Below, one piece after another: positions 27,242 through 37,541 of a stretch of DNA of 64,000 bases (positions are counted from its first letter, which is position 1; every line of letters starts with the position of its first letter). Location: the sequence record PZ452611.1; one strand, given 5' to 3'. The notes under the pieces are model-generated. The model ran no database searches, was not told where the DNA came from, and was given only the letters and a program-made list of their open reading frames with translations. Source of the stretch: a phage. The position numbers and the translations under genes were made by a program.

Positions 27242-28611
27242 TGGAAAAAGGGCAGTATGATGTAGGCACAGATGCTGCCCTCGTTGCAATCATGAGCGGT
27301 GAGAATGTCTTCGTTTCAGGACCCGCAGGTTGTGGGAAGACGTACCTCATCAACATGATCCAGTCAATGTATGGAGACTCTTGCATAACGGTTGCCCCGA
27401 CAGGGGTAGCCGCTTTAAACGTTAATGGAGCAACAGCACACCGAACCTTCGATCTTGCAGCAGGTGTGAGCATGGAGTCGGACTGGACCGCAATAAGGGC
27501 AAAAACAGCAAAGCCTTTGAAAAGCAAGGCATTTACCATCCTAATTATCGATGAAATCTCTATGATCCGTGCTGATAAGTTTATAGAGATGGATAGGAAA
27601 CTCCGCTTCCTTCGAAAAAATGACAAACCTTTCGGGGGCATACAGGTCATATTGTTTGGCGATTTTTACCAGGCACCTCCTGTTGTCTCTTCTATGGAGA
27701 AGGAAGCCTACTTCAACTTCTACCATACGGACCTGTGTTGCTATACCGAATCTTGGAAAGAGCTTGACCTCCACAACATAGCCCTAATAGATCAGTTCCG
27801 ACAGGAGTCTATTCGATTTGCTACAATGCTCAACTGTGTTCGTGAGGGTCGTCGCATAAAAGAGGTTGTAGCAGAACTTAATGCTCGCTGTTACAAAGGA
27901 GGTGTACCAACAGACGCTCTCACAATTTGCGCCACCAACAAACAAGCAGAGGAAGTGAACAGAAGGTTCTATGATGCCATCAACGCCCCAGAGAAGGTAT
28001 ACACTGGTGAAATGAAGGGTAAGTTTCCCTCCACCCTGCCAGTTGAGCAGGAGATGAAGTTGAAAATTGGCATGAAAGTTATGATAACCGCCAACGATGT
28101 TGACCCGACGCACAAAGTACCTTATTATGTTAACGGAACACGTGCTACAATTGTTAAATTTAAGAACAAGGCGGTGGTGGTAGAGCTTGAAGATGGAACA
28201 CAGGTTGACATAGAGCAGAGGTTGTGGGAGAATAACGAGTATAAGCCATCTCAGAGATACAACATTGCAGAAAGGAAGATGGAGAAGTTTATAGAGAGGG
28301 TAGTGATTGGGTCATACAAGCAACTTCCTCTGAAATCTGGGTACGCCGTAACATCTCATAAAAGTCAAGGACTTACACTAGATTGTTACAACCTAGACCT
28401 TGGAAAGAACGGAGCTTTCTCTCCTGGGATGACGTATGTCGCTTTGAGTAGAGTTAAGACAATACAAGGAATAAACTTGTTGCGTCCACTAAGAGAGGTT
28501 GACATTATTGTTGACCCGCGAGTCGTAGAGTTTTACAATACAACATTCCCTGACTTAGACAAAATTGTCAGGAAAGATTTTGAAACCAGAGCAGAAGAGG
28601 GGGACGTATGA
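27241..28611 (+). CDS. SF1B DNA helicase, Dda/RecD/Pif1-like
   Basis: 456-aa ORF; Walker A GPAGCGKTY, Walker B ILIIDEISMI, helicase motif VTSHKSQGLTLD, C-terminal LSRVKT. Confidence 0.7.
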   Translation: MEKGQYDVGTDAALVAIMSGENVFVSGPAGCGKTYLINMIQSMYGDSCITVAPTGVAALNVNGATAHRTFDLAAGVSMESDWTAIRAKTAKPLKSKAFTILIIDEISMIRADKFIEMDRKLRFLRKNDKPFGGIQVILFGDFYQAPPVVSSMEKEAYFNFYHTDLCCYTESWKELDLHNIALIDQFRQESIRFATMLNCVREGRRIKEVVAELNARCYKGGVPTDALTICATNKQAEEVNRRFYDAINAPEKVYTGEMKGKFPSTLPVEQEMKLKIGMKVMITANDVDPTHKVPYYVNGTRATIVKFKNKAVVVELEDGTQVDIEQRLWENNEYKPSQRYNIAERKMEKFIERVVIGSYKQLPLKSGYAVTSHKSQGLTLDCYNLDLGKNGAFSPGMTYVALSRVKTIQGINLLRPLREVDIIVDPRVVEFYNTTFPDLDKIVRKDFETRAEEGDV

Positions 28612-28949
28612 GTTTGTGGAGAAATATCGTTAACTACGTGTGCGGCAATCCAACTCCTGAAGAGAAGGATGTTGTGATTCACGATTTTACTAAAAGATCT
28701 TGTGAAAAAGATCTACTGCTAACAAAGGTGACTGATAAAGATCCTGCAGTAGGAGACTGGGCAGGTTTTGCGTTTACATCGGACAAATACACCTTTAACA
28801 AAGGTGACTACCTTGTTGTGGATTTTAACGAAGACATTGAGGGTGCTGAACCTTACTATCAAACCCTTATTGTTGCAGGGTGTGTTGATCTCTCTGCAGG
28901 CATGCACAGTTTGATTCTTTTTGAGCTTGACTCTGAAGACCTTGAGTAG
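28608..28949 (+). CDS. hypothetical protein
   Basis: 113-aa ORF overlapping stop of helicase gene. Confidence 0.45.
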   Translation: MSLWRNIVNYVCGNPTPEEKDVVIHDFTKRSCEKDLLLTKVTDKDPAVGDWAGFAFTSDKYTFNKGDYLVVDFNEDIEGAEPYYQTLIVAGCVDLSAGMHSLILFELDSEDLE

Positions 28950-29010
28950 TAAGATGTGAGTATAAAGGGGAGGCACTCCTCCCCACAAAAACTAAGGAGA
29001 GCACCAAACG

Positions 29011-30336
29011 ATGAGTAAAACCAAATTAGAACTTACCTGGATAGGTAAAAACGAGCGCAAAAAGTTAGAGCAGCACATTTTGTTAGAAGATTCTAGCAAG
29101 TCTTACCACAGCCAGAAAGTGACCGAAAACGATATTTTTGATAATAAACTGATTTTTGGAGATAACTTATTAGCATTGAAGGCGCTAGAGCAAGAGTATG
29201 CAGGCAAAGTGAAGTGTGTTTACATAGACCCACCATTCAATACCGGGAGGGCTTTTGAGCACTACGATGATAGCCTGGAGCATTCCGTTTGGCTGGGCTT
29301 AATGAGGGATAGGTTAGAAATAATTCGTAATCTTCTAAGTGATGATGGGGTAATATTCGTTCACTTAGATGATTGCGAAATGGCGTATTTAAAAGTTTTG
29401 ATGGACGAGATTTTTGGTCGTGCAAATCAGTTAAATACCATATCGATGACCACAAATTCCCCTTCGGGATTTAAGGCAACAGGAGCCACAGTTTTCTCCA
29501 CAGCAAACTTTTTGCTTGTATATGCAAAAGATCGCACCCAGAAACCGCTTAACAAAATCTATATACCTAAAGGGTATGATACAGGATATAACAAATACCT
29601 ATTAAACCCGGATGACCATTATAAAAATTGGACGTGGTGCGGTATTGCCGATGCGTTTGCAAAGGCCAATGGCTATAAAGATGCAAAAGAAGCTAAGAAA
29701 AAACTGCCTGACACATTCGATGATGAATTAGCACAATTCGCAATTGATAATGCAGAACGTGTATTTCAATCTGTTGCAATTGGTGGTGGCGCTAAAATAA
29801 AGAGAAAAGAAACTATCGAGAAGTCAAAGAAAGATAGGGATAAGGTTTATGTACATCCGAATGAGGATGTTGAAGGATTTTATATCGCAAATGGTAGGCA
29901 AATGGTCTTTTACTCCAACAGGCTTTTGGAAATTGACGGTGAGATGCAACCTGCGGAACTAATAACTGATGTTTGGACAGACATTAGTTGGAATGGAATA
30001 GCAAATGAAGGCGGCGTTAGTTTCAAAAATGGAAAAAAACCAGAAGCGCTTTTGAAGCGGATTCTCGAAATGTGTACGCGAGAAGGTGATTTGGTATTGG
30101 ATTCATTCGGCGGTTCGGGAACTACTGCTGCTGTAGCCCACAAGATGAAAAGACGTTGGATCTTGATCGAACTGGGTGATCATTGTCATACCCATATTAT
30201 CCCTCGCTTGCAAAAAGTGATTGATGGTGAAGATCAAGGTGGTATTTCTAAGTCTGCAAGCTGGCAAGGTGGCGGTGGCTTCCGCTATTACAAACTTACC
30301 CAGACCTTAATTACGAAAGATAATTCTGATCAATAA
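29011..30336 (+). CDS. DNA methyltransferase, beta-class amino-MTase (N6-adenine or N4-cytosine)
   Basis: 441-aa ORF; catalytic motif IV VYIDPPFNTG precedes AdoMet motif I VLDSFGGSGTT near C-terminus (circular permutation characteristic of beta-class N6A/N4C MTases); RBS aaggag. Confidence 0.7.
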   Translation: MSKTKLELTWIGKNERKKLEQHILLEDSSKSYHSQKVTENDIFDNKLIFGDNLLALKALEQEYAGKVKCVYIDPPFNTGRAFEHYDDSLEHSVWLGLMRDRLEIIRNLLSDDGVIFVHLDDCEMAYLKVLMDEIFGRANQLNTISMTTNSPSGFKATGATVFSTANFLLVYAKDRTQKPLNKIYIPKGYDTGYNKYLLNPDDHYKNWTWCGIADAFAKANGYKDAKEAKKKLPDTFDDELAQFAIDNAERVFQSVAIGGGAKIKRKETIEKSKKDRDKVYVHPNEDVEGFYIANGRQMVFYSNRLLEIDGEMQPAELITDVWTDISWNGIANEGGVSFKNGKKPEALLKRILEMCTREGDLVLDSFGGSGTTAAVAHKMKRRWILIELGDHCHTHIIPRLQKVIDGEDQGGISKSASWQGGGGFRYYKLTQTLITKDNSDQ

Positions 30337-30349
30337 AGAGTACAATCAA

Positions 30350-30655
30350 ATGATGAAACGTTATAAACCATACACTTTTGAAATCGATTTCGAACTTGAC
30401 GATATGTTTACTGTGGAAGCTCAGGCAGTTGTTCAGTTGCCAGATCCGGAGTGCCGGGATTCTGATGTTGACTGTTACGGATTTAGACAAATCACCGATG
30501 TGCATGTTTACCACAACGGTGAAGAGGTGGACTTCCACCAACTGCCAAACGATATGCGCCACTCAATTTACAAACGTGCAGCCCGTGAACTAGAGTCCTA
30601 TCTGGATGCAGCGACGACAGCAGCTGCATTTGCTGAAGAAGTGGGAGGTTTCTGA
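30350..30655 (+). CDS. hypothetical protein
   Basis: 101-aa ORF. Confidence 0.45.
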   Translation: MMKRYKPYTFEIDFELDDMFTVEAQAVVQLPDPECRDSDVDCYGFRQITDVHVYHNGEEVDFHQLPNDMRHSIYKRAARELESYLDAATTAAAFAEEVGGF

Positions 30656-31050
30656 TGATTACAGGTGTGAAGATTATCCAATACCACTTAACCAAATTGG
30701 AAGATGCTGAAAAAGAGCTTGCAGAAGTTCTGAATAGTGGATATACTTTGCTATCATGCGCCTGCTCAGACACATACGCTGTGTGGACACTTATCCGGAA
30801 GGAAGAGCCTGCGGGGATCTTGGTGCCAAACCCTAAGATCATTAGTGAGGTGGATGACTACGCTCAGGACGGCCTGCCAGAAGGCTGGGAAGTATGGGAA
30901 GGTGGTGAAAACCCTGCACCAGGTAAGTGGGTAAAATACAAACTGCGTAGTGGCGCACAGTACGCTGACTATTCTGATGACCTGGACTGGAGTCATTCTT
31001 CACCAGAATCATCTGCAAGTTCCTATGATATCATAGCTTTTAAGGAATAA
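30655..31050 (+). CDS. hypothetical protein
   Basis: 131-aa ORF with ATGA overlap. Confidence 0.45.
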   Translation: MITGVKIIQYHLTKLEDAEKELAEVLNSGYTLLSCACSDTYAVWTLIRKEEPAGILVPNPKIISEVDDYAQDGLPEGWEVWEGGENPAPGKWVKYKLRSGAQYADYSDDLDWSHSSPESSASSYDIIAFKE

Positions 31051-31062
31051 GGAGAAGGTGGT

Positions 31063-31545
31063 ATGTCAGATTTTATGTGGAAAGTTGGTTATTCCTCCCC
31101 TGAAATGTGTAAGGCCTGTTTTGTGAAAATAGGTCGCGAGGATATCGACAAAGTGATTCTTAAGTTTCGTGATGTGGCTGTAATCGGCAACCGAGTGCTT
31201 AAGCACTTAAAGAATCTGAAGCTCACCAAAAAGAAGTTCTTTGGACTTTTCGAAGAGAAGGTTGATGCTTGGACCCATTGCATTCAGGAAGCTAAATCTC
31301 ACTACAGTGCTATCATTACCCCAGAACGGGTAGCCAAGATGGAAGGATTCATCAACAGCACAGAGTTTGAGTGCCTGAAAGCTGCACTTGATAGTTATCC
31401 GAAATGCCTCAAGCACTTGGACAAGTATGTAGAAAAGGATGGGGAAATGTATCTAACCCTGGACGCATATTATGAGATGCAAGAAATTTTAAATTTAGAT
31501 TTGACATTGGTATCCACCGAGTATACAATAGGTATCCGGGTTTAA
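31063..31545 (+). CDS. hypothetical protein
   Basis: 160-aa ORF, RBS aggag upstream. Confidence 0.45.
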   Translation: MSDFMWKVGYSSPEMCKACFVKIGREDIDKVILKFRDVAVIGNRVLKHLKNLKLTKKKFFGLFEEKVDAWTHCIQEAKSHYSAIITPERVAKMEGFINSTEFECLKAALDSYPKCLKHLDKYVEKDGEMYLTLDAYYEMQEILNLDLTLVSTEYTIGIRV

Positions 31546-31551
31546 CACTAG

Positions 31552-31578
31552 GCCCTGCCCGAAAGGGTGGGGCTTTTT
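31552..31578 (+). terminator. putative intrinsic terminator (repeated element, copy 1)
   Basis: GCCCTGCCC-gaaa-GGGTGGGGC hairpin (G-U wobble pairs) followed by TTTTT; identical 22-nt core recurs at 42602-42629. Confidence 0.55.
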
Positions 31579-31596
31579 GCATTAGGAGACAGCAAA

Positions 31597-32361
31597 TTGA
31601 AATTCATCTACAAAGAACACTACCACAAAGGTGTTGTGTGGAGTCTATTTGACGGGTCTGGTGGTGCAGTTATTGACTGGGCAAAAGCTGGGTACCTGTG
31701 CCTGTGCTTTAATGCAGAAGGTGCTGACCACGGCAGTTATGCAGAGGTGATAACCGATCATCCTAACATTCACTATGTGGATTATTGGATTGACCCATGG
31801 TTCCCTCAGGAAACTTTTTGCATGTATCCAGCTCCAGACTTTATTCTTGCATTTCCTCCGTGCACGCATTTAGCGGTATCAGGTGCTGCACATTTTAAGA
31901 AAAAGCTGGCTAAGGATCCTTTGATCCAAATTAATGCTGTAAAGGATGCTCGGGTTGCGGAAGAGTTGGGAGAGATTTACGATTGCCCGTGGCATGTAGA
32001 GAATCCTGTAGGGGTTATGTCCACACTGTGGCGAAAACCTGATTACCGTTTTCATCCTTCGGATTATGGTGGGTATTTACCGGAGGATGATGTAAACCCC
32101 TGGTTTCCTGAATTTATAGCTCCACGTGATGCCTATCCAAAAATAACTTGCGGCTGGATAGGCAATGGATTTATAATCCCGGCCACAAAACCTGTCCCGC
32201 AAATAGTTGACGCGGTTAGCGGGTATTCCATGCAACACGCCAAGCTGGGTGGAAAGAGTGCAAGAACGAAGATGATCCGAAGCCTCACGCCACGTGGCTG
32301 GGCAAAAGCCGTATTCTTAGCAAACGAGCCTGTAGTAAGGAGCAGAATTAATGGGAAGTAA
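31597..32361 (+). CDS. short C5-cytosine-methyltransferase-like protein
   Basis: ORF 31567-32361; TTG at 31597 follows AGGAGA by 7 nt (upstream GTG sits inside the terminator hairpin); motifs LFDGSGG (AdoMet motif I-like), FPPCTHLAVSG (motif IV-like, catalytic Cys), HVENPVG (motif VI ENV-like); only ~255 aa. Confidence 0.5.
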   Translation: MKFIYKEHYHKGVVWSLFDGSGGAVIDWAKAGYLCLCFNAEGADHGSYAEVITDHPNIHYVDYWIDPWFPQETFCMYPAPDFILAFPPCTHLAVSGAAHFKKKLAKDPLIQINAVKDARVAEELGEIYDCPWHVENPVGVMSTLWRKPDYRFHPSDYGGYLPEDDVNPWFPEFIAPRDAYPKITCGWIGNGFIIPATKPVPQIVDAVSGYSMQHAKLGGKSARTKMIRSLTPRGWAKAVFLANEPVVRSRINGK

Positions 32362-34429
32362 ATTTATGGCATCTGCATACAACCGTTTCGGTGAGCCAAA
32401 CCCGAAAGCAACTAAGTATAAAAGTGGGGGAAGTGTGAAACGAGACTATCGTGATGAAAAAGAGGTTGAAACTGTAGAGACTGTTTTAGAAAATACTAAA
32501 ATCGTCCCTGTCCCACAACAAAATATCGGTCTGATGGCTGCACAATATTTTGGTGTGCGATCAGCATTGTCCCAAGAAGACGGTGTGACAGTTACTGCAA
32601 CATATTTCCCATATTACGACCGCTACGGGAATCTGTCCGGTTTCAAAAAGCGTGACTGGACGATCCCCAAAGAGCAACGTGGGCACTTTACGACGGTTGG
32701 GATCGTAAAGGCTAACTCCCAAATGTTTGGGCAAAAGCTGTGTGCATCTTCTAACAACCGTAAGCAGATTAACGTTTGTGAGGGGGAAGGCGATGTTATT
32801 GCAGCATGGCAGGCTGCATATCAGATACAAGTAAAAGGGATTCTCACCAACGCTAAAGCCCCGGCAAAGGTGAAACAGTGGGCTAAAGAGGTCCAGGACG
32901 GGATCGATGCAGTTATCAACGGGGGTGATCTGGCAGGAAAACCCTGCCTGCCTTTTGTTGGAATTAACTGTGGATGTGCAAACGCAGTAGATACTTTTGC
33001 AAACAATGAGAAATTTATCCGTAGCTACGGAACAGTGGTCCTTGCAATGGACAACGATGCAGCTAACGAGGTAGAGAAGCAAAAACACGTTATCAAAGGT
33101 GTTGAAGCCACACATAATATCGCGGCATTTTTGATGGCGGATAACGTTTACCACGTGGAATACCCCAGTGAGGTAAACGACCCTGACGGTGTAAAAGATA
33201 TCCGTGACATGCTGAAGGCTAAAAAGCTGGAAGATATTGTCAACATGTTCCGTCACCCAGTCAAATATGTGCCCGATGCTGTATCTGATTTAGAAGACTT
33301 CTCCATTGAATCTCTTCGTAAGAAGACTTCTAATGGCGTAGATATCAGCGCGGAGTTCCCTAAATTGCAGAAGATGCTGAAAGGACTCCACAAAGGCACC
33401 TTGATGATGCTGACAGGCCCATCTGGCGGTGGTAAAACAACTGTAGCCAAGAAACTAGAACACTGCATTGCAAAATACTTGATGGATCCGACATGCCCTA
33501 AAGCCGATGATTATGAAGAGGATGATCGCCTGTGTCTGATTCACCTTGAAGAGGACCCTGAGGAAGCAATTAACTCTCTATACGCCAACCAGTTGGGGTT
33601 TGATGTTAAAGAGTTTGTTGAAGACCCTAGTCAGTTCCTGACTGATCAGGAGCATGCTGAGATTCACCAATCTTGGGCCAAGGCTGGAAAAATCAAAGTG
33701 TTCAAGCATTTTGGGTCTATTCCTGTAGATGAGTTGATCACTAAGCTTAAACAAATGGTGTGTCTGTATCACTGCCGTTACATTGTGCTGGATCACCTGT
33801 CCATGGTAATTTCAGGGCTTAATGTTAAGGATGAGCGCAAAGAACTTGACATGGCTATGACGCAACTAGCCGCGTTCTGCAAGCAGTTTAATGTATTTAT
33901 CTTGGTGATCGCTCACCTGAAACGCATAGAGATTGTGCCTCCAAAGGACAAGGATGGGAATCCGTTACCTTTCTGGTATCCTGTACGAAAAGAGAACCTT
34001 CGGGGTAGTGCCGGATTGGAGCAACTTAGCTGGGTAGTTGTTGGGGTGGAGGCAGAAGAGATGGTGGATCGTTCCCGTGGACGTGTCCGACTGGTAGGTC
34101 TTAAAAACCGCCCAGCAAAAACGTTAGGCATTGCGGATACCTTAGTTATGGATCCCCACACAGGTAAGTTCCATGATGCCAGCAACTGGTACTGGGACAA
34201 AGAAATGCAGATGTTCACAGACGGCGAAGGTGGGGAGGTTGTTTGGAGACCTCAAGCTATGTTTGAGGATCAAGGGCACGCAGTTGTAGAAACACCTGTA
34301 GGTAGGGTTGTGGCTGATAAGGTTGTAACTCCTACTGTTAACCCTGTTGACACACAAGAAGACCTCCCGTATGATGATCCGTCCTCTGACCATGTTCCCG
34401 GTTTTGAGGATGATGAAACACCTTTTTAA
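32351..34429 (+). CDS. DNA primase-helicase (Toprim domain fused to DnaB/gp4-like helicase)
   Basis: 692-aa ORF; Toprim motifs CEGEGDV and LAMDNDAAN; helicase Walker A LTGPSGGGKTT, Walker B IVLDHLSMV, motif H4-like RGSAGLEQ. Confidence 0.7.
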   Translation: MGSKFMASAYNRFGEPNPKATKYKSGGSVKRDYRDEKEVETVETVLENTKIVPVPQQNIGLMAAQYFGVRSALSQEDGVTVTATYFPYYDRYGNLSGFKKRDWTIPKEQRGHFTTVGIVKANSQMFGQKLCASSNNRKQINVCEGEGDVIAAWQAAYQIQVKGILTNAKAPAKVKQWAKEVQDGIDAVINGGDLAGKPCLPFVGINCGCANAVDTFANNEKFIRSYGTVVLAMDNDAANEVEKQKHVIKGVEATHNIAAFLMADNVYHVEYPSEVNDPDGVKDIRDMLKAKKLEDIVNMFRHPVKYVPDAVSDLEDFSIESLRKKTSNGVDISAEFPKLQKMLKGLHKGTLMMLTGPSGGGKTTVAKKLEHCIAKYLMDPTCPKADDYEEDDRLCLIHLEEDPEEAINSLYANQLGFDVKEFVEDPSQFLTDQEHAEIHQSWAKAGKIKVFKHFGSIPVDELITKLKQMVCLYHCRYIVLDHLSMVISGLNVKDERKELDMAMTQLAAFCKQFNVFILVIAHLKRIEIVPPKDKDGNPLPFWYPVRKENLRGSAGLEQLSWVVVGVEAEEMVDRSRGRVRLVGLKNRPAKTLGIADTLVMDPHTGKFHDASNWYWDKEMQMFTDGEGGEVVWRPQAMFEDQGHAVVETPVGRVVADKVVTPTVNPVDTQEDLPYDDPSSDHVPGFEDDETPF

Positions 34430-34487: not shown

Positions 34488-36917
34488 ATGAGCATGTGGT
34501 CTTTCGATTTTGAGTCATCCGGTTTGCTGGAAGACCCAGATCTTTATTATCACTGCGGCCTGTTTAAAGAGTTGAATAAGAACCGTTTTATGCTGTTCCT
34601 TCCTCTGAATGACCGCACACACTACTCCGAGGAGGATATAGAGAAGGCTAAGAACTTTATTCTGGCAAAGAAAACTCTTTATAAGGATTTTGAAGTTCGC
34701 ATAGCAGATTTTTCAGAGTTGGAAGGTTGGCTTACAGGCAATTCTGACTGGTCACCCACAGCTTTGAACTGCCACAACTGCTACAGCTACGACTTTATGC
34801 TGATGGAGAGATTGTCCGGTATTCATTTTGATATGTTCCGTGATCCTAAGTGCATGGGGACTATCAACGACCACCAGGTTAATCTGTTTGATACGTTGGC
34901 GATGAGCCGAATCTTGTGGCCTGATCGCCCTTTACCAAAAGGTTGTCCGGACTCTGTATTCAACCCGGTTACTAAGAAAATGCAGCCTGTTGGTCCTCAC
35001 GGCCTTATGGCATGGGGCTACGCCCTTGGTAACCAGAAAGTTCAAATTGATGACTGGCGCGATCTTCCGTTGTGGAAGTATGTGGATCGTGTATTCGAGG
35101 ACGTTATCATCCAGGAGCTGCTCTGGAAAGAGCTGGTAGCGGAATCAAAAGGTGTATTCTACGGCAAATCTGACATGCAGAACTTTATGTACGATCCAGC
35201 CAAAGAGAAGCCGAAAGGGTTCAAGAAGATCACCTGGAAGAACGCATTACGTCGAGGCATGCTGCAGCACTTCCTGATGGAGCTGCAGGCCCGTCAGGGT
35301 GTATACTTCGACATAGATGGAGCTATTGCTTTACGTGACCGTTGCGATGCGTGGATGAAAGAAATCGCTGATCGTGTTGAACCACAACTACCTTTAAAAG
35401 AGCTGTCAATGTCTCAGCGGCCCAAGTTCCCTGAAAAGCCGTTTAACCAAGACGGGACAATCTCTAATAATGGTTGGAAATGGTTAAAAGATAAGCTTGG
35501 CTATCCTGTAGACATGAGTGCTTTAGAGTTCAAAGCCCCGCCTAAGCGAGCATTTACCTCTACAGGAGATGTCAGCAAGATGGGGATAAAATGGTGTGAA
35601 GAGATGGGCTGCAAAGACCCCGATAAGATGGCTGATTTCTTGAGAGGCTATATTAAGGGCACCTCCACACCACAACCCTTACCTAAAGAGCTGATGGATC
35701 AGGCAATAAGTGATCTGCAGCAGAAGCGAATGCCTGACTGCAAGATACCTATGAAAATCAGCAATCAGGACGACATCAAGCGATACCTAATCAGTGCTGG
35801 TTGGCTCCCAACAATGTGGAGAACTAAAGATGTAACTAAAGACAGCAAGAAGAAAGCTTTACCTGATGCAGATGTTGATGCACGAGTATATGCATATATG
35901 GACGAGCTTTTGGAGTCAGAGTATTGTGACCTAATTATCAACTTCTGGAACAAAACTGATGCTAAGTTCCAGACAACCGTGCACAAGTTCCGAAGCTTTC
36001 CTAACTCCGAAAGGATTAAAAAGGAAGTATTCGGGAAAATACGTAGAAAAGCCAGGGCACTTATTACTTCTCCGCAACTGAAAGATACGTTTGGACACCT
36101 GTGTCCGAATCTTGAAAAATTGAACGGAGAGATGGCTAAAGATATCGTCTTGTGGTTATCATTGCGAAACCGCAGATCGGTCCTTGATCCAATCAAGGAG
36201 GATAAGGTTGATACTGGTCTTCTTAATCACCCACGTTTGAAGATTGACCATAAGCTTCCTGCTAAAAGCTCTGGATTAACAAACACTTCCAGACAGAAAC
36301 ACAGTATTTGTGCAAACATGCCTAAACCATCTCCTAAAGTGGTTATGGGTAAAGAGATGCGTAGTCTGTGGGGTGTTCCTCCGGGATACTTTGAGATCGG
36401 TATTGACGGGTCCAACTTAGAGCAGCTTATCGGGGCTTGGGGTGCCTTTGAGTTCGACAACGGCTTGTATTATGATGTTGTAAGTAACGGAGACGCACAC
36501 CAAAACAATGCTGAGGCATATACAAAAGTAGCAGGCAGAGAGGTGTCCCGTAACGACGGTAAACCTATCACGTATGGGGTTATGTACGGGGCACAAAAAG
36601 ATAAAGTTGCAGATATGCTGGACATCTCCCCAGAGTTGGGACAAAGGGTAATCGATGCACTCTGGGATGCCAACCCAGGTCTTAAGGGGCGCAAAGAGGA
36701 TCTGGAGAAATTCTGGGAAGCAACAGGTAAGAAGTTTATCTACTCTTTTGATGGTCATGCTATCTGGACCCGATCTAAACACTCTTTACTTAATGCATAC
36801 CAACAAAATGGCGGTGCATCGTTGTGTGACTTAGTTGGAATACTCATGCACCACCAGATGGTGAAGCGTGGGTGGTACGATGAAGGTGTTCGTCGTATTA
36901 TTTATTACCATAAATAA
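34488..36917 (+). CDS. DNA polymerase, family A, with N-terminal 3'-5' exonuclease domain
   Basis: 809-aa ORF, RBS aaggag; Exo I FDFESSG, Exo II HNCYSYDF; Pol motif A IDGSNLEQL, motif B RNDGKPITYGVMYGA (K...YG..YG), C-terminal YDE. Confidence 0.75.
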   Translation: MSMWSFDFESSGLLEDPDLYYHCGLFKELNKNRFMLFLPLNDRTHYSEEDIEKAKNFILAKKTLYKDFEVRIADFSELEGWLTGNSDWSPTALNCHNCYSYDFMLMERLSGIHFDMFRDPKCMGTINDHQVNLFDTLAMSRILWPDRPLPKGCPDSVFNPVTKKMQPVGPHGLMAWGYALGNQKVQIDDWRDLPLWKYVDRVFEDVIIQELLWKELVAESKGVFYGKSDMQNFMYDPAKEKPKGFKKITWKNALRRGMLQHFLMELQARQGVYFDIDGAIALRDRCDAWMKEIADRVEPQLPLKELSMSQRPKFPEKPFNQDGTISNNGWKWLKDKLGYPVDMSALEFKAPPKRAFTSTGDVSKMGIKWCEEMGCKDPDKMADFLRGYIKGTSTPQPLPKELMDQAISDLQQKRMPDCKIPMKISNQDDIKRYLISAGWLPTMWRTKDVTKDSKKKALPDADVDARVYAYMDELLESEYCDLIINFWNKTDAKFQTTVHKFRSFPNSERIKKEVFGKIRRKARALITSPQLKDTFGHLCPNLEKLNGEMAKDIVLWLSLRNRRSVLDPIKEDKVDTGLLNHPRLKIDHKLPAKSSGLTNTSRQKHSICANMPKPSPKVVMGKEMRSLWGVPPGYFEIGIDGSNLEQLIGAWGAFEFDNGLYYDVVSNGDAHQNNAEAYTKVAGREVSRNDGKPITYGVMYGAQKDKVADMLDISPELGQRVIDALWDANPGLKGRKEDLEKFWEATGKKFIYSFDGHAIWTRSKHSLLNAYQQNGGASLCDLVGILMHHQMVKRGWYDEGVRRIIYYHK

Positions 36918-37184
36918 CATTGTGGCTTCATAGAGTAATCTATGTCGAATAACCTCTTTAACTGCGGGAAGCCTAAACCTTATGGCAAGGTAATCCGCAA
37001 CGAAGCGCTCAAAAGAGCGAACGCTCAGAGGCCATTCCGAAAGGAAGTAGACCAGCAAGTGCGGTCGAAATGGGAGGATTCCTGTGGTTGCTTATCATAG
37101 GAATATGAGATGGTCCGATCCTACGTGAAAACGTATGGCTATGCACGTAATGGTGCGGGGTAGCTTAACGACCTACCTGAACTA

Positions 37185-37541
37185 TTGGATGAGTACCAAC
37201 TTCAAGTGCCTGACACACCGAAGTATAAGACTGTGTACACCTTCGACACAATTGAAGAACTGGAAGCATTTAAGGCAGAGCAGGAAGCCAAACTTCATGT
37301 GTTCGACGGTCATAAGTACAAAAAGGCACGCAAGGATGAGGACGGAAACGAAGTGGTTGACAGAGACGGAAACACGGTGTACGATCCTATCCTGAACGAT
37401 AACGGAAAGCTTGAACTTATCTGGAGCCCTGTGGGTGAAATGGTGGTGCATTGCTTCTGGCAAGCTTCTAAAATGATGGGAGTCCCGTTCCAGATCACAG
37501 GTGAATACTTGTGTGGTAGTAACTGGGGTGATTGTCACTAA
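37185..37541 (+). CDS. hypothetical protein
   Basis: 118-aa ORF (TTG start, no clear RBS). Confidence 0.35.
   Translation: MDEYQLQVPDTPKYKTVYTFDTIEELEAFKAEQEAKLHVFDGHKYKKARKDEDGNEVVDRDGNTVYDPILNDNGKLELIWSPVGEMVVHCFWQASKMMGVPFQITGEYLCGSNWGDCH

Follow-up and report, generated by a model that had tools for sequence, protein, structure and literature searches.

The locus and its two methyltransferase genes

The subject of this analysis is a pair of genes, rv5_gp230 and rv5_gp226 (hereafter gp230 and gp226), carried on a 64,000-nucleotide stretch of phage DNA (record PZ452611.1) that is referred to here, at its full length, as the window. A first-pass annotation, made from the sequence alone, had described both as methyltransferase-like genes of the replication module, and the two open reading frames (ORFs) with all of the motifs it quoted were found where it had placed them. 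Positions 28600-32400 of the window, and a wider segment from 14000 to 38900, match Escherichia phage V5/rV5 (DQ832317, NC_011041) and also O157 typing phage 5 (KP869103) at 100% identity, and about 100 further Vequintavirus genomes show 96-99% identity to the same segments. In RefSeq, gp230 is labelled 'methyltransferase' and gp226 'DNA methyltransferase'. The orthologues of gp226 in the BASEL phages (99% identical) are named 'Dcm-like C5 cytosine methyltransferase', and gp230 is likewise annotated there as a methyltransferase. The feature is already known: both genes are annotated stand-alone methyltransferases of a long-sequenced reference phage.

The best explanation of the data as a whole, which we hold with considerable confidence, is that the early replication module of rV5 encodes two orphan DNA methyltransferases. 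As shown in Table 1, both genes are read from the plus strand. The genes around them include rIIA, rIIB, a PIF1/Dda-like helicase, a primase/helicase and a DNA polymerase; this setting bears out the location in a replication module. Four small ORFs of unknown function lie in the neighbourhood, one 5' of gp230 and three separating gp230 from gp226. ORFs of 101-160 aa without a Pfam match, together with the PIF1/Dda-like helicase, are found near gp230. No nuclease or Res gene was present among the neighbours in Pfam, PHROG or RefSeq annotation, so the description of both genes as orphan stands.

Table 1. Features of the gp230-gp226 locus, in window positions
Feature	Position	Strand	Remarks
rv5_gp230	29011..30336	+	orphan beta-class DNA methyltransferase, 441 aa, from Type III Mod subunit
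gp230 motif IV DPPF, residues 73-76	29227..29238	+	read from the translation; aligns to DPPY of EcoP15I and of 6k0w Mod
gp230 motif I FGGSGTT, residues 366-372	30106..30126	+	lines up with F(A)GSGTT in Mod subunits, CcrM and M.MboIIA
sigma-70-like promoter, TTGACA-17 nt-TACAAT	31501..31529	+	11 of 12 consensus positions, as a consensus match only; P231 in the rV5 record
terminator-like GC-rich hairpin, then T run	31550..31575	+	stem of 11 pairs (7 GC); lies after the promoter and before gp226
rv5_gp226	31597..32361	+	compact orphan C5-cytosine methyltransferase, 254 aa from a TTG; belongs to the phage 'Dcm-like' family
gp226 motif I LFDGSGG, residues 17-23	31645..31665	+	AdoMet-binding loop after strand beta-1
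gp226 motif IV FPPCTH, residues 86-91	31852..31869	+	holds the predicted catalytic Cys89
gp226 motif VI VENPVG, residues 134-139	31996..32013	+	Glu135; aligns to FENVV of DNMT3A
gp226 motif VIII equivalent YPKITCGWIGNGF	32134..32172	+	Lys182 and Thr184 where R-x-R is expected
gp226 hypervariable loop, residues 194-216	32176..32244	+	presumed miniature target-recognition element
gp226 IRSLTPRG, opens C-terminal helix	32275..32298	+	candidate motif IX/X equivalent
primase/helicase gene	32351..34429	+	ATG overlaps the gp226 end by 11 nt

gp226, a compact C5-cytosine methyltransferase

The gp226 frame extends to a GTG at 31567; the start used here is the TTG, as in RefSeq and BASEL, which has an AGGAG Shine-Dalgarno sequence 7 nt upstream. 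The protein matches PHROG 757 ('DNA methyltransferase') with an E value of 5e-87 over residues 10-261 of the 264-aa translation from the GTG, a span that runs from the start of the 254-aa protein through its residue 251. A database clustered at 90% identity held 3546 homologues at E<=1e-3, those listed being 219-262 aa long, and the family comprises 1018 clusters at 50% identity. A count over 50,697 phage records gave 1504 with a family gene, among them Drexlerviridae, Dhillonvirus, Jerseyvirus, Krischvirus, Seunavirus, Phapecoctavirus, Klebsiella Webervirus and others, and its orphan context recurs in unrelated phages and in prophages. Within Vequintavirus the gene is kept in essentially all genomes and is a core gene of the genus.

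One member of this family has been characterized biochemically. Phage K42 shares 95% identity with BASEL phage KarlJaspers (Bas06), and four of four K42 mutants isolated as escaping retron Ec86 disrupt a 711-bp 'dcm' gene; expression of this gene raised 5-methylcytosine (5mC) in the multicopy single-stranded DNA (msDNA) of Ec86, as determined by liquid chromatography coupled to mass spectrometry (LC-MS) against a 5mC standard, and was toxic only with Ec86 present (bioRxiv 10.1101/2023.08.16.553469). A quadruple mutant of K42 Dcm (C82A/E128A/K175A/K176A) was inactive, and the authors of the preprint noted the fit of the protein to DNMT3A (bioRxiv 10.1101/2023.08.16.553469). We found that the product of the KarlJaspers gene bas06_0055 (711 bp) is 54% identical to gp226 over 235 residues (E 2e-86), and pairwise alignment places K42 C82, E128 and K175 on Cys89, Glu135 and Lys182 of gp226, with K176 on Ile183. 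The two proteins are alike in length class (254 vs 236 aa), in the Cys of PPC, the Glu of ENP and the Lys of YPK, and in being encoded by orphan genes of an early or replication region. Because the K42 homologue makes 5mC, the family can be regarded as a validated group of C5-cytosine DNA methyltransferases dependent on S-adenosylmethionine (AdoMet), and the K42 activity likely carries over to gp226. The first-pass annotation had proposed that gp226 might be a non-canonical cytosine modifier or use a different substrate; a 54%-identical homologue that raises 5mC in DNA speaks against this.

Specificity is a separate matter. The variable loop of rV5 gp226 reads ...SGYSMQHAK (the 'GYSxQH' class) while that of the K42-type protein reads ...DNPGWAK (the 'NPGW' class), and, judging from these sequences, the target of gp226 may differ from that of K42 Dcm. 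Escherichia coli MG1655 is generally known as dcm+. The preprint experiments were run in this strain, in which msDNA of the empty-vector control was low in 5mC, and CCWGG was assumed for K42 Dcm from the host Dcm, being unmapped and supported only by msDNA mutants (bioRxiv 10.1101/2023.08.16.553469). Either host Dcm misses the msDNA or the site of the phage enzyme is not simply CCWGG, and the specificity of the family is not really settled.

Residues expected in catalysis are strongly conserved across 149 family sequences that reach down to ~30% identity. Cys89 is kept in 145 of these and Glu135 in 148, followed by Asn136 (140) and Pro137 (147); Lys182 and Thr184 are each found in 142 and Trp187 in 146, and toward the C terminus Arg228, Ser229 and Pro232 are retained in 143, 132 and 139, respectively. 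Thr90 and Tyr180 are also near-invariant. The spacing between Lys182 and Arg228 varies from 16 to 82 residues (median 42), and the stretch that joins the NGF.P strand to LGGKS is hypervariable, its length differing as well as its sequence. Since the shortness and the PCT and ENP variants are shared across the family, they are hallmarks of it and not oddities of gp226.

The motifs of gp226 occur in the order FDGSG (residues 18-22), PPC (87-89) and ENP (135-137, with Pro in place of Val). In alignments the counterparts of motif I are SLFDGIA (DNMT3A) and FAGLGG (HhaI), and those of motif IV are PCND and PCQ, respectively. Two features of canonical C5 enzymes are lacking. The sequence P-K-(K/I)-T replaces the Q-x-R-x-R of motif VIII, and only ~42 residues lead to IRSLTPRG where a canonical enzyme has a target-recognition domain of ~80-100 or more residues, then motifs IX and X with GN; no separate motifs IX and X could be recognized in gp226. 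M.HhaI and M.HaeIII (PF00145) share with gp226 the fold and the motif order I, IV, VI, VIII. They differ from it in having PCQ, ENV and RxR for PCT, ENP and KxT, about 110 residues (in HhaI) for ~42 between motifs VIII and IX, and, unlike gp226, a partner endonuclease. The resemblance to DNMT3A and DNMT3B lies in a very small target-recognition region and in SLFDG, PC-x-DL, ENV/ENP and (F/L)W-x-GN after motif VIII; identity is only 12-17%, gp226 has no regulatory domains, and K-x-T stands for R-x-R. This resemblance is not evidence for a specific evolutionary link.

An AlphaFold2 model of gp226 built from a 48-sequence alignment had a mean predicted local distance difference test score (pLDDT) of 90.6 and a predicted template modelling score (pTM) of 0.90. 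In this structure prediction, which the first-pass annotation had proposed as a check, gp226 falls in the class I methyltransferase fold, nearest the C5 enzymes: the model has the class I strand order and a C-terminal helix at residues 233-253, and the top 42 Foldseek matches in the Protein Data Bank (PDB) are all C5 methyltransferases (DNMT3A/3B and the enzyme of prophage CP-933R). The separation in this comparison of the model is real but modest, and it is in combination with the motifs that it identifies the fold. The program hhalign aligned the gp226 family to DNMT3A over motifs I-IV (E 2e-4). At low stringency WHVENPVG falls on WLFENVVA and YPKITCGWIGN on AHRARYFWGN of DNMT3A, so that motifs I, IV, VI and VIII are in register. 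Past motif VIII the alignments to DNMT3A and HhaI, both of whose sequences were verified, are unreliable, and motifs IX and X and the position of HhaI Asn304 are not assignable. Taken together, motifs, family and fold support the earlier call of gp226 as C5-like with a very small target-recognition region.

Domains of this family also occur in longer proteins. A search of cluster representatives found them inside proteins of 292-414 aa, and Foldseek found the compact C5 domain within BFVD entries A0A6J5SE15_1 (1397 aa) and A0A6J5NPY6_2 (1126 aa) from uncultured Caudovirales, at 23-26% identity and template modelling (TM) scores of 0.56-0.63. The larger of the two is named Helicase/UvrB N-terminal.

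gp230, a beta-class methyltransferase of Type III Mod origin

The motif VYIDPPFNTG of gp230 spans residues 70-79 (window 29218-29247), and DPPF stands N-terminal to FxGxG, which is the motif order of the beta class. Together with a match to Pfam PF01555 (N6_N4_Mtase) far above the gathering cutoff (147.7 bits against 26.7; E 6.4e-43), this upholds the beta-class assignment made from DPPF before FGGSGTT. The strongest relationship is to the modification subunit of Type III restriction-modification systems. gp230 matches the PADLOC model MTase_III (PDLC03636) with an E value of 2.3e-200 (665 bits) over model positions 2-443 of 575, and its best PDB sequence matches are the Mod subunits 6k0w (2.4e-29) and EcoP15I, 4zcf (4.5e-23). 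It shares with these two proteins the N-terminal region, DPPY/F, a central variable region and FxGSGTT in identical order. Unlike them, it has 441 aa rather than 618-644, stops at position 443 of the 575-position model, is borne by a phage, is accessory in its genus and has no Res subunit. Because its neighbours hold no Res gene, gp230 is an orphan Mod, also without the C-terminal part, and not a restriction-modification system. Asp in DPPF points to N6-adenine, Ser being typical of N4-cytosine enzymes, and by this residue and its Mod homology gp230 probably modifies N6-adenine.

The gene is a dispensable accessory cassette in the genus, being lost or frameshifted in about a quarter of genomes. 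It is present in 88 of 117 Vequintavirus records and cleanly absent from the remaining 29, where the upstream intergenic region continues directly into the next gene. In Bas49 a change from T5 to T6, equivalent to window position 29135, breaks the frame before DPPF. The GC content of gp230 is 0.400, compared to 0.438 for the window. Close homologues are confined to Vequintavirus, and the next are found in true Campylobacter phages at 38-41% identity.

Several minor observations concern this gene and its surroundings. The frameshift in the Bas49 homologue (EmilHeitz, MZ501062, 2400-6487) lies near codon 42, as a result of which BASEL annotates only a 344-aa C-terminal fragment without DPPF. In the same phage a putative homing endonuclease gene sits between the Dcm-like and primase/helicase genes, equivalent to window position 32351. 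Sixteen GenBank MG0656xx records (e.g. MG065658, MG065677 and MG065647) are titled 'Campylobacter phage' with Campylobacter jejuni as host and are 96-98% identical to E. coli rV5-like phages across 25 kb; these are probably mislabelled or contaminant assemblies. The true Campylobacter phages CP81 and CP8 show only ~40% protein identity to gp230.

Directly 3' of gp230 lies gp229 (rv5_gp229; 30350-30655, plus strand; 101 aa), a member of PHROG 4240 (unknown function) that is kept in phages without gp230. It has a weak match (E 2.4e-6) to PHROG 1573, labelled 'DNA methyltransferase'; gp229 is far too small for a methyltransferase, and the label may therefore be a propagated misannotation. The small genes gp231 (28608-28949) and gp228 (30655-31050), which flank gp230 and are of unknown function, gave weak matches (E 2.4e-4 and 2e-6, respectively) to a PHROG labelled 'DNA ligase', and a Pfam scan gave no match for either.

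Catalysis, restriction and competing explanations

In its probable mechanism, gp226 would bind AdoMet in a Rossmann-fold site at LFDGSG. Cys89 of PPC would attack C6 of a flipped-out cytosine held by Glu135 (of ENP) and Lys182, and transfer of the methyl group to C5 would give 5mC. The hypervariable loop, about 20-45 residues, is proposed to stand in for the ~100-residue canonical recognition domain, as in DNMT3A/3B. gp230, by analogy with Mod subunits, would act alone, probably as a dimer, and would use AdoMet to methylate a single adenine, at N6, within a short asymmetric site. The 11-nt overlap of gp226 with the primase/helicase gene suggests co-expression with replisome genes.

Several results weigh against two DNA methyltransferases that shield the phage, some bearing on the identity of gp226 and others on the purpose of both enzymes. 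As to identity, gp226 itself gave no match reaching threshold in Pfam, NCBIfam or PADLOC, and none to PF00145 even at E<=1. Its aligned relatives, in contrast, speak for a C5 enzyme: 26 of 48 match PF00145 at E<=1, and the gathering score (22 bits) is exceeded by three, over motifs I-IV only (profile positions 4-94). Profile-profile comparison with HhaI, as a single sequence or as a 22-sequence profile, was not significant, recovering only motifs I-IV or motif IV at a probability of 2%; the HhaI homologues retrieved were too alike, and DNMT3A gave the better result. When the PDB was searched by sequence, with gp226 or with its profile, the sole match was one to HaeIII below threshold. The specificity of K42 Dcm cannot be transferred to gp226, given the differing loop. 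Literature searches, one of them poorly specified, found no methylome for Vequintavirus or rV5, and neither methylation nor restriction comes up in the rV5 genome paper.

As to purpose, plating data are available (BASEL S1 Data) for 12 rV5-like phages, Bas48-Bas59, on six restriction-modification systems. All 12 carry a gp226-type gene, yet they plate at ~1e-4 to 1e-3 on EcoRI, and on EcoRV plating is below detection or nearly so. gp230 is intact in Bas48 and Bas50-55, frameshifted in Bas49 and absent from Bas56-59; the seven intact alleles show few amino acid differences from rV5 (6 or 12-13). Plating on EcoCFT_II and on EcoPI (Type III) varies among the phages. Partial resistance to EcoCFT_II was seen in Bas48 and Bas51, with intact gp230, and in the frameshifted Bas49, and partial resistance to EcoPI in Bas48, Bas49, Bas56 and Bas57, the last two without gp230. 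The plating data were rejected as evidence that gp230 acts against Type III restriction, there being no correlation of its status with plating on either system across these phages. The anti-restriction role proposed in the first-pass annotation is thus unproven: EcoRI and EcoRV plating shows no protection, and no link to gp230 emerges.

Restriction sites in the window were also counted. CCWGG occurs 126 times (observed/expected 0.82), GATC has a ratio of 1.0, and EcoRI, EcoRV and EcoP1 sites are at about 1. These counts reveal no informative avoidance and say nothing on the target of either enzyme.

A substantial, although clearly less probable, alternative is that both enzymes are active but that their value lies outside classical anti-restriction, in marking replicated DNA, tuning expression or packaging, or countering defences other than restriction-modification, with gp230 perhaps a decaying hitch-hiker. 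The plating results above favour it, as do the loss or frameshift of gp230 in part of the genus and the description of Vequintavirinae as 'exceptionally susceptible' to restriction-modification systems (PMC8594841). For Drexlerviridae, too, the BASEL study saw no simple tie between methyltransferase genes and restriction phenotype (PMC8594841). Against this, only six systems were tested, none of them known to match the site of either enzyme. For orphan methyltransferases of phages, the established role is to methylate the phage's own DNA against restriction, and protection from enzymes other than these six remains the default expectation and the presumed role. The only documented consequence of carrying a member of the gp226 family is costly to the phage, namely detection by retron Ec86. 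That essentially all Vequintavirus genomes nevertheless keep gp226, whose homologue is such a liability, implies a real benefit and counts against an explanation outside anti-restriction. A role of this kind would leave the identities of the proteins unchanged.

A more specific proposal, which we consider improbable, is that gp226 is coupled to the replicative helicase and methylates at or just behind the fork, with a loop of ~20 residues setting specificity and a site, for the GYSxQH class, that differs from CCWGG and is possibly very short. Hints for it are the 11-nt overlap with the primase/helicase gene, the proteins of more than 1000 aa that hold the compact domain, and the finding that the family gene overlaps or adjoins helicase genes in Dhillonvirus, Jerseyvirus and T1-like phages. 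In lambdoid prophages, however, the family gene lies in the nin region with no helicase nearby.

It is very unlikely that gp226 transfers a group other than methyl, such as carboxymethyl from carboxy-S-adenosylmethionine (Cx-SAM) in the manner of CmoX, a possibility raised by a match to CmoX, or that its substrate is not duplex DNA. Cx-SAM is made in E. coli by CmoA, and the motifs of gp226 are the variant forms PCT, ENP and K-x-T. An invariant Arg228 lies in its candidate motif X region, and CmoX owes its selectivity to an Arg where motif X has its Asn (PMC12783734). Yet the product of the K42 homologue is 5mC by LC-MS (bioRxiv 10.1101/2023.08.16.553469). CmoX proteins are recognized by SPPC with the Arg, usually beside CmoA and an amide ligase, whereas gp226 has FPPC, and neither a CmoA nor a ligase gene was found in its neighbourhood in Pfam, PHROG or RefSeq annotation. 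DNMT3A, which uses AdoMet, has GRSW at what we take to be its motif X (the sequence itself was verified), and an Arg there is therefore not diagnostic. CmoX (PDB 8yf3) has 333 aa, a normal recognition domain, SPPC with Arg350 and a CmoA/CmoY linkage, none of which apply to rV5 gp226 (PMC12783734).

Least probable of all is that gp226 is an RNA (tRNA) C5 methyltransferase like DNMT2, or that it has lost catalysis and serves as a DNA-binding or regulatory protein: it does lack a canonical target-recognition domain, but DNMT2 matches score under the DNA enzymes and no higher than generic Rossmann folds, the Cys, Glu and Lys kept in 142-148 of the 149 sequences argue for retained catalysis, and the K42 homologue methylates DNA.

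As a discovery the pair of orphan methyltransferases carries little weight, rV5 being a reference phage with both genes annotated and the short family being widespread with a biochemically validated member. The compact family, a C5 methyltransferase that is minimal by nature and has a hypervariable loop, holds some interest for those who wish to understand or engineer specificity without a canonical recognition domain. The natural knock-outs of gp230 (29 clean empty sites and one frameshift) would ease methylome mapping, and carrying gp226 may expose rV5-like therapeutic phages to retron Ec86.

A final observation concerns the DNA polymerase gene of rV5 (34488-36917 and about 37188-37541), which contains a 276-bp insertion at window 36902-37187 (plus strand). 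The polymerase of Bas59 is a contiguous 926 aa and is without this insertion. RefSeq records two separate 'DNA polymerase' coding sequences in rV5, and in the rV5 genome paper the terminase gene is the only one described with introns, the polymerase being taken to have 775 aa. Rfam identified the insertion as a group I intron (RF00028) over 36902-37137, with a score of 64.7 bits (E 4e-16), the gathering score being 50.

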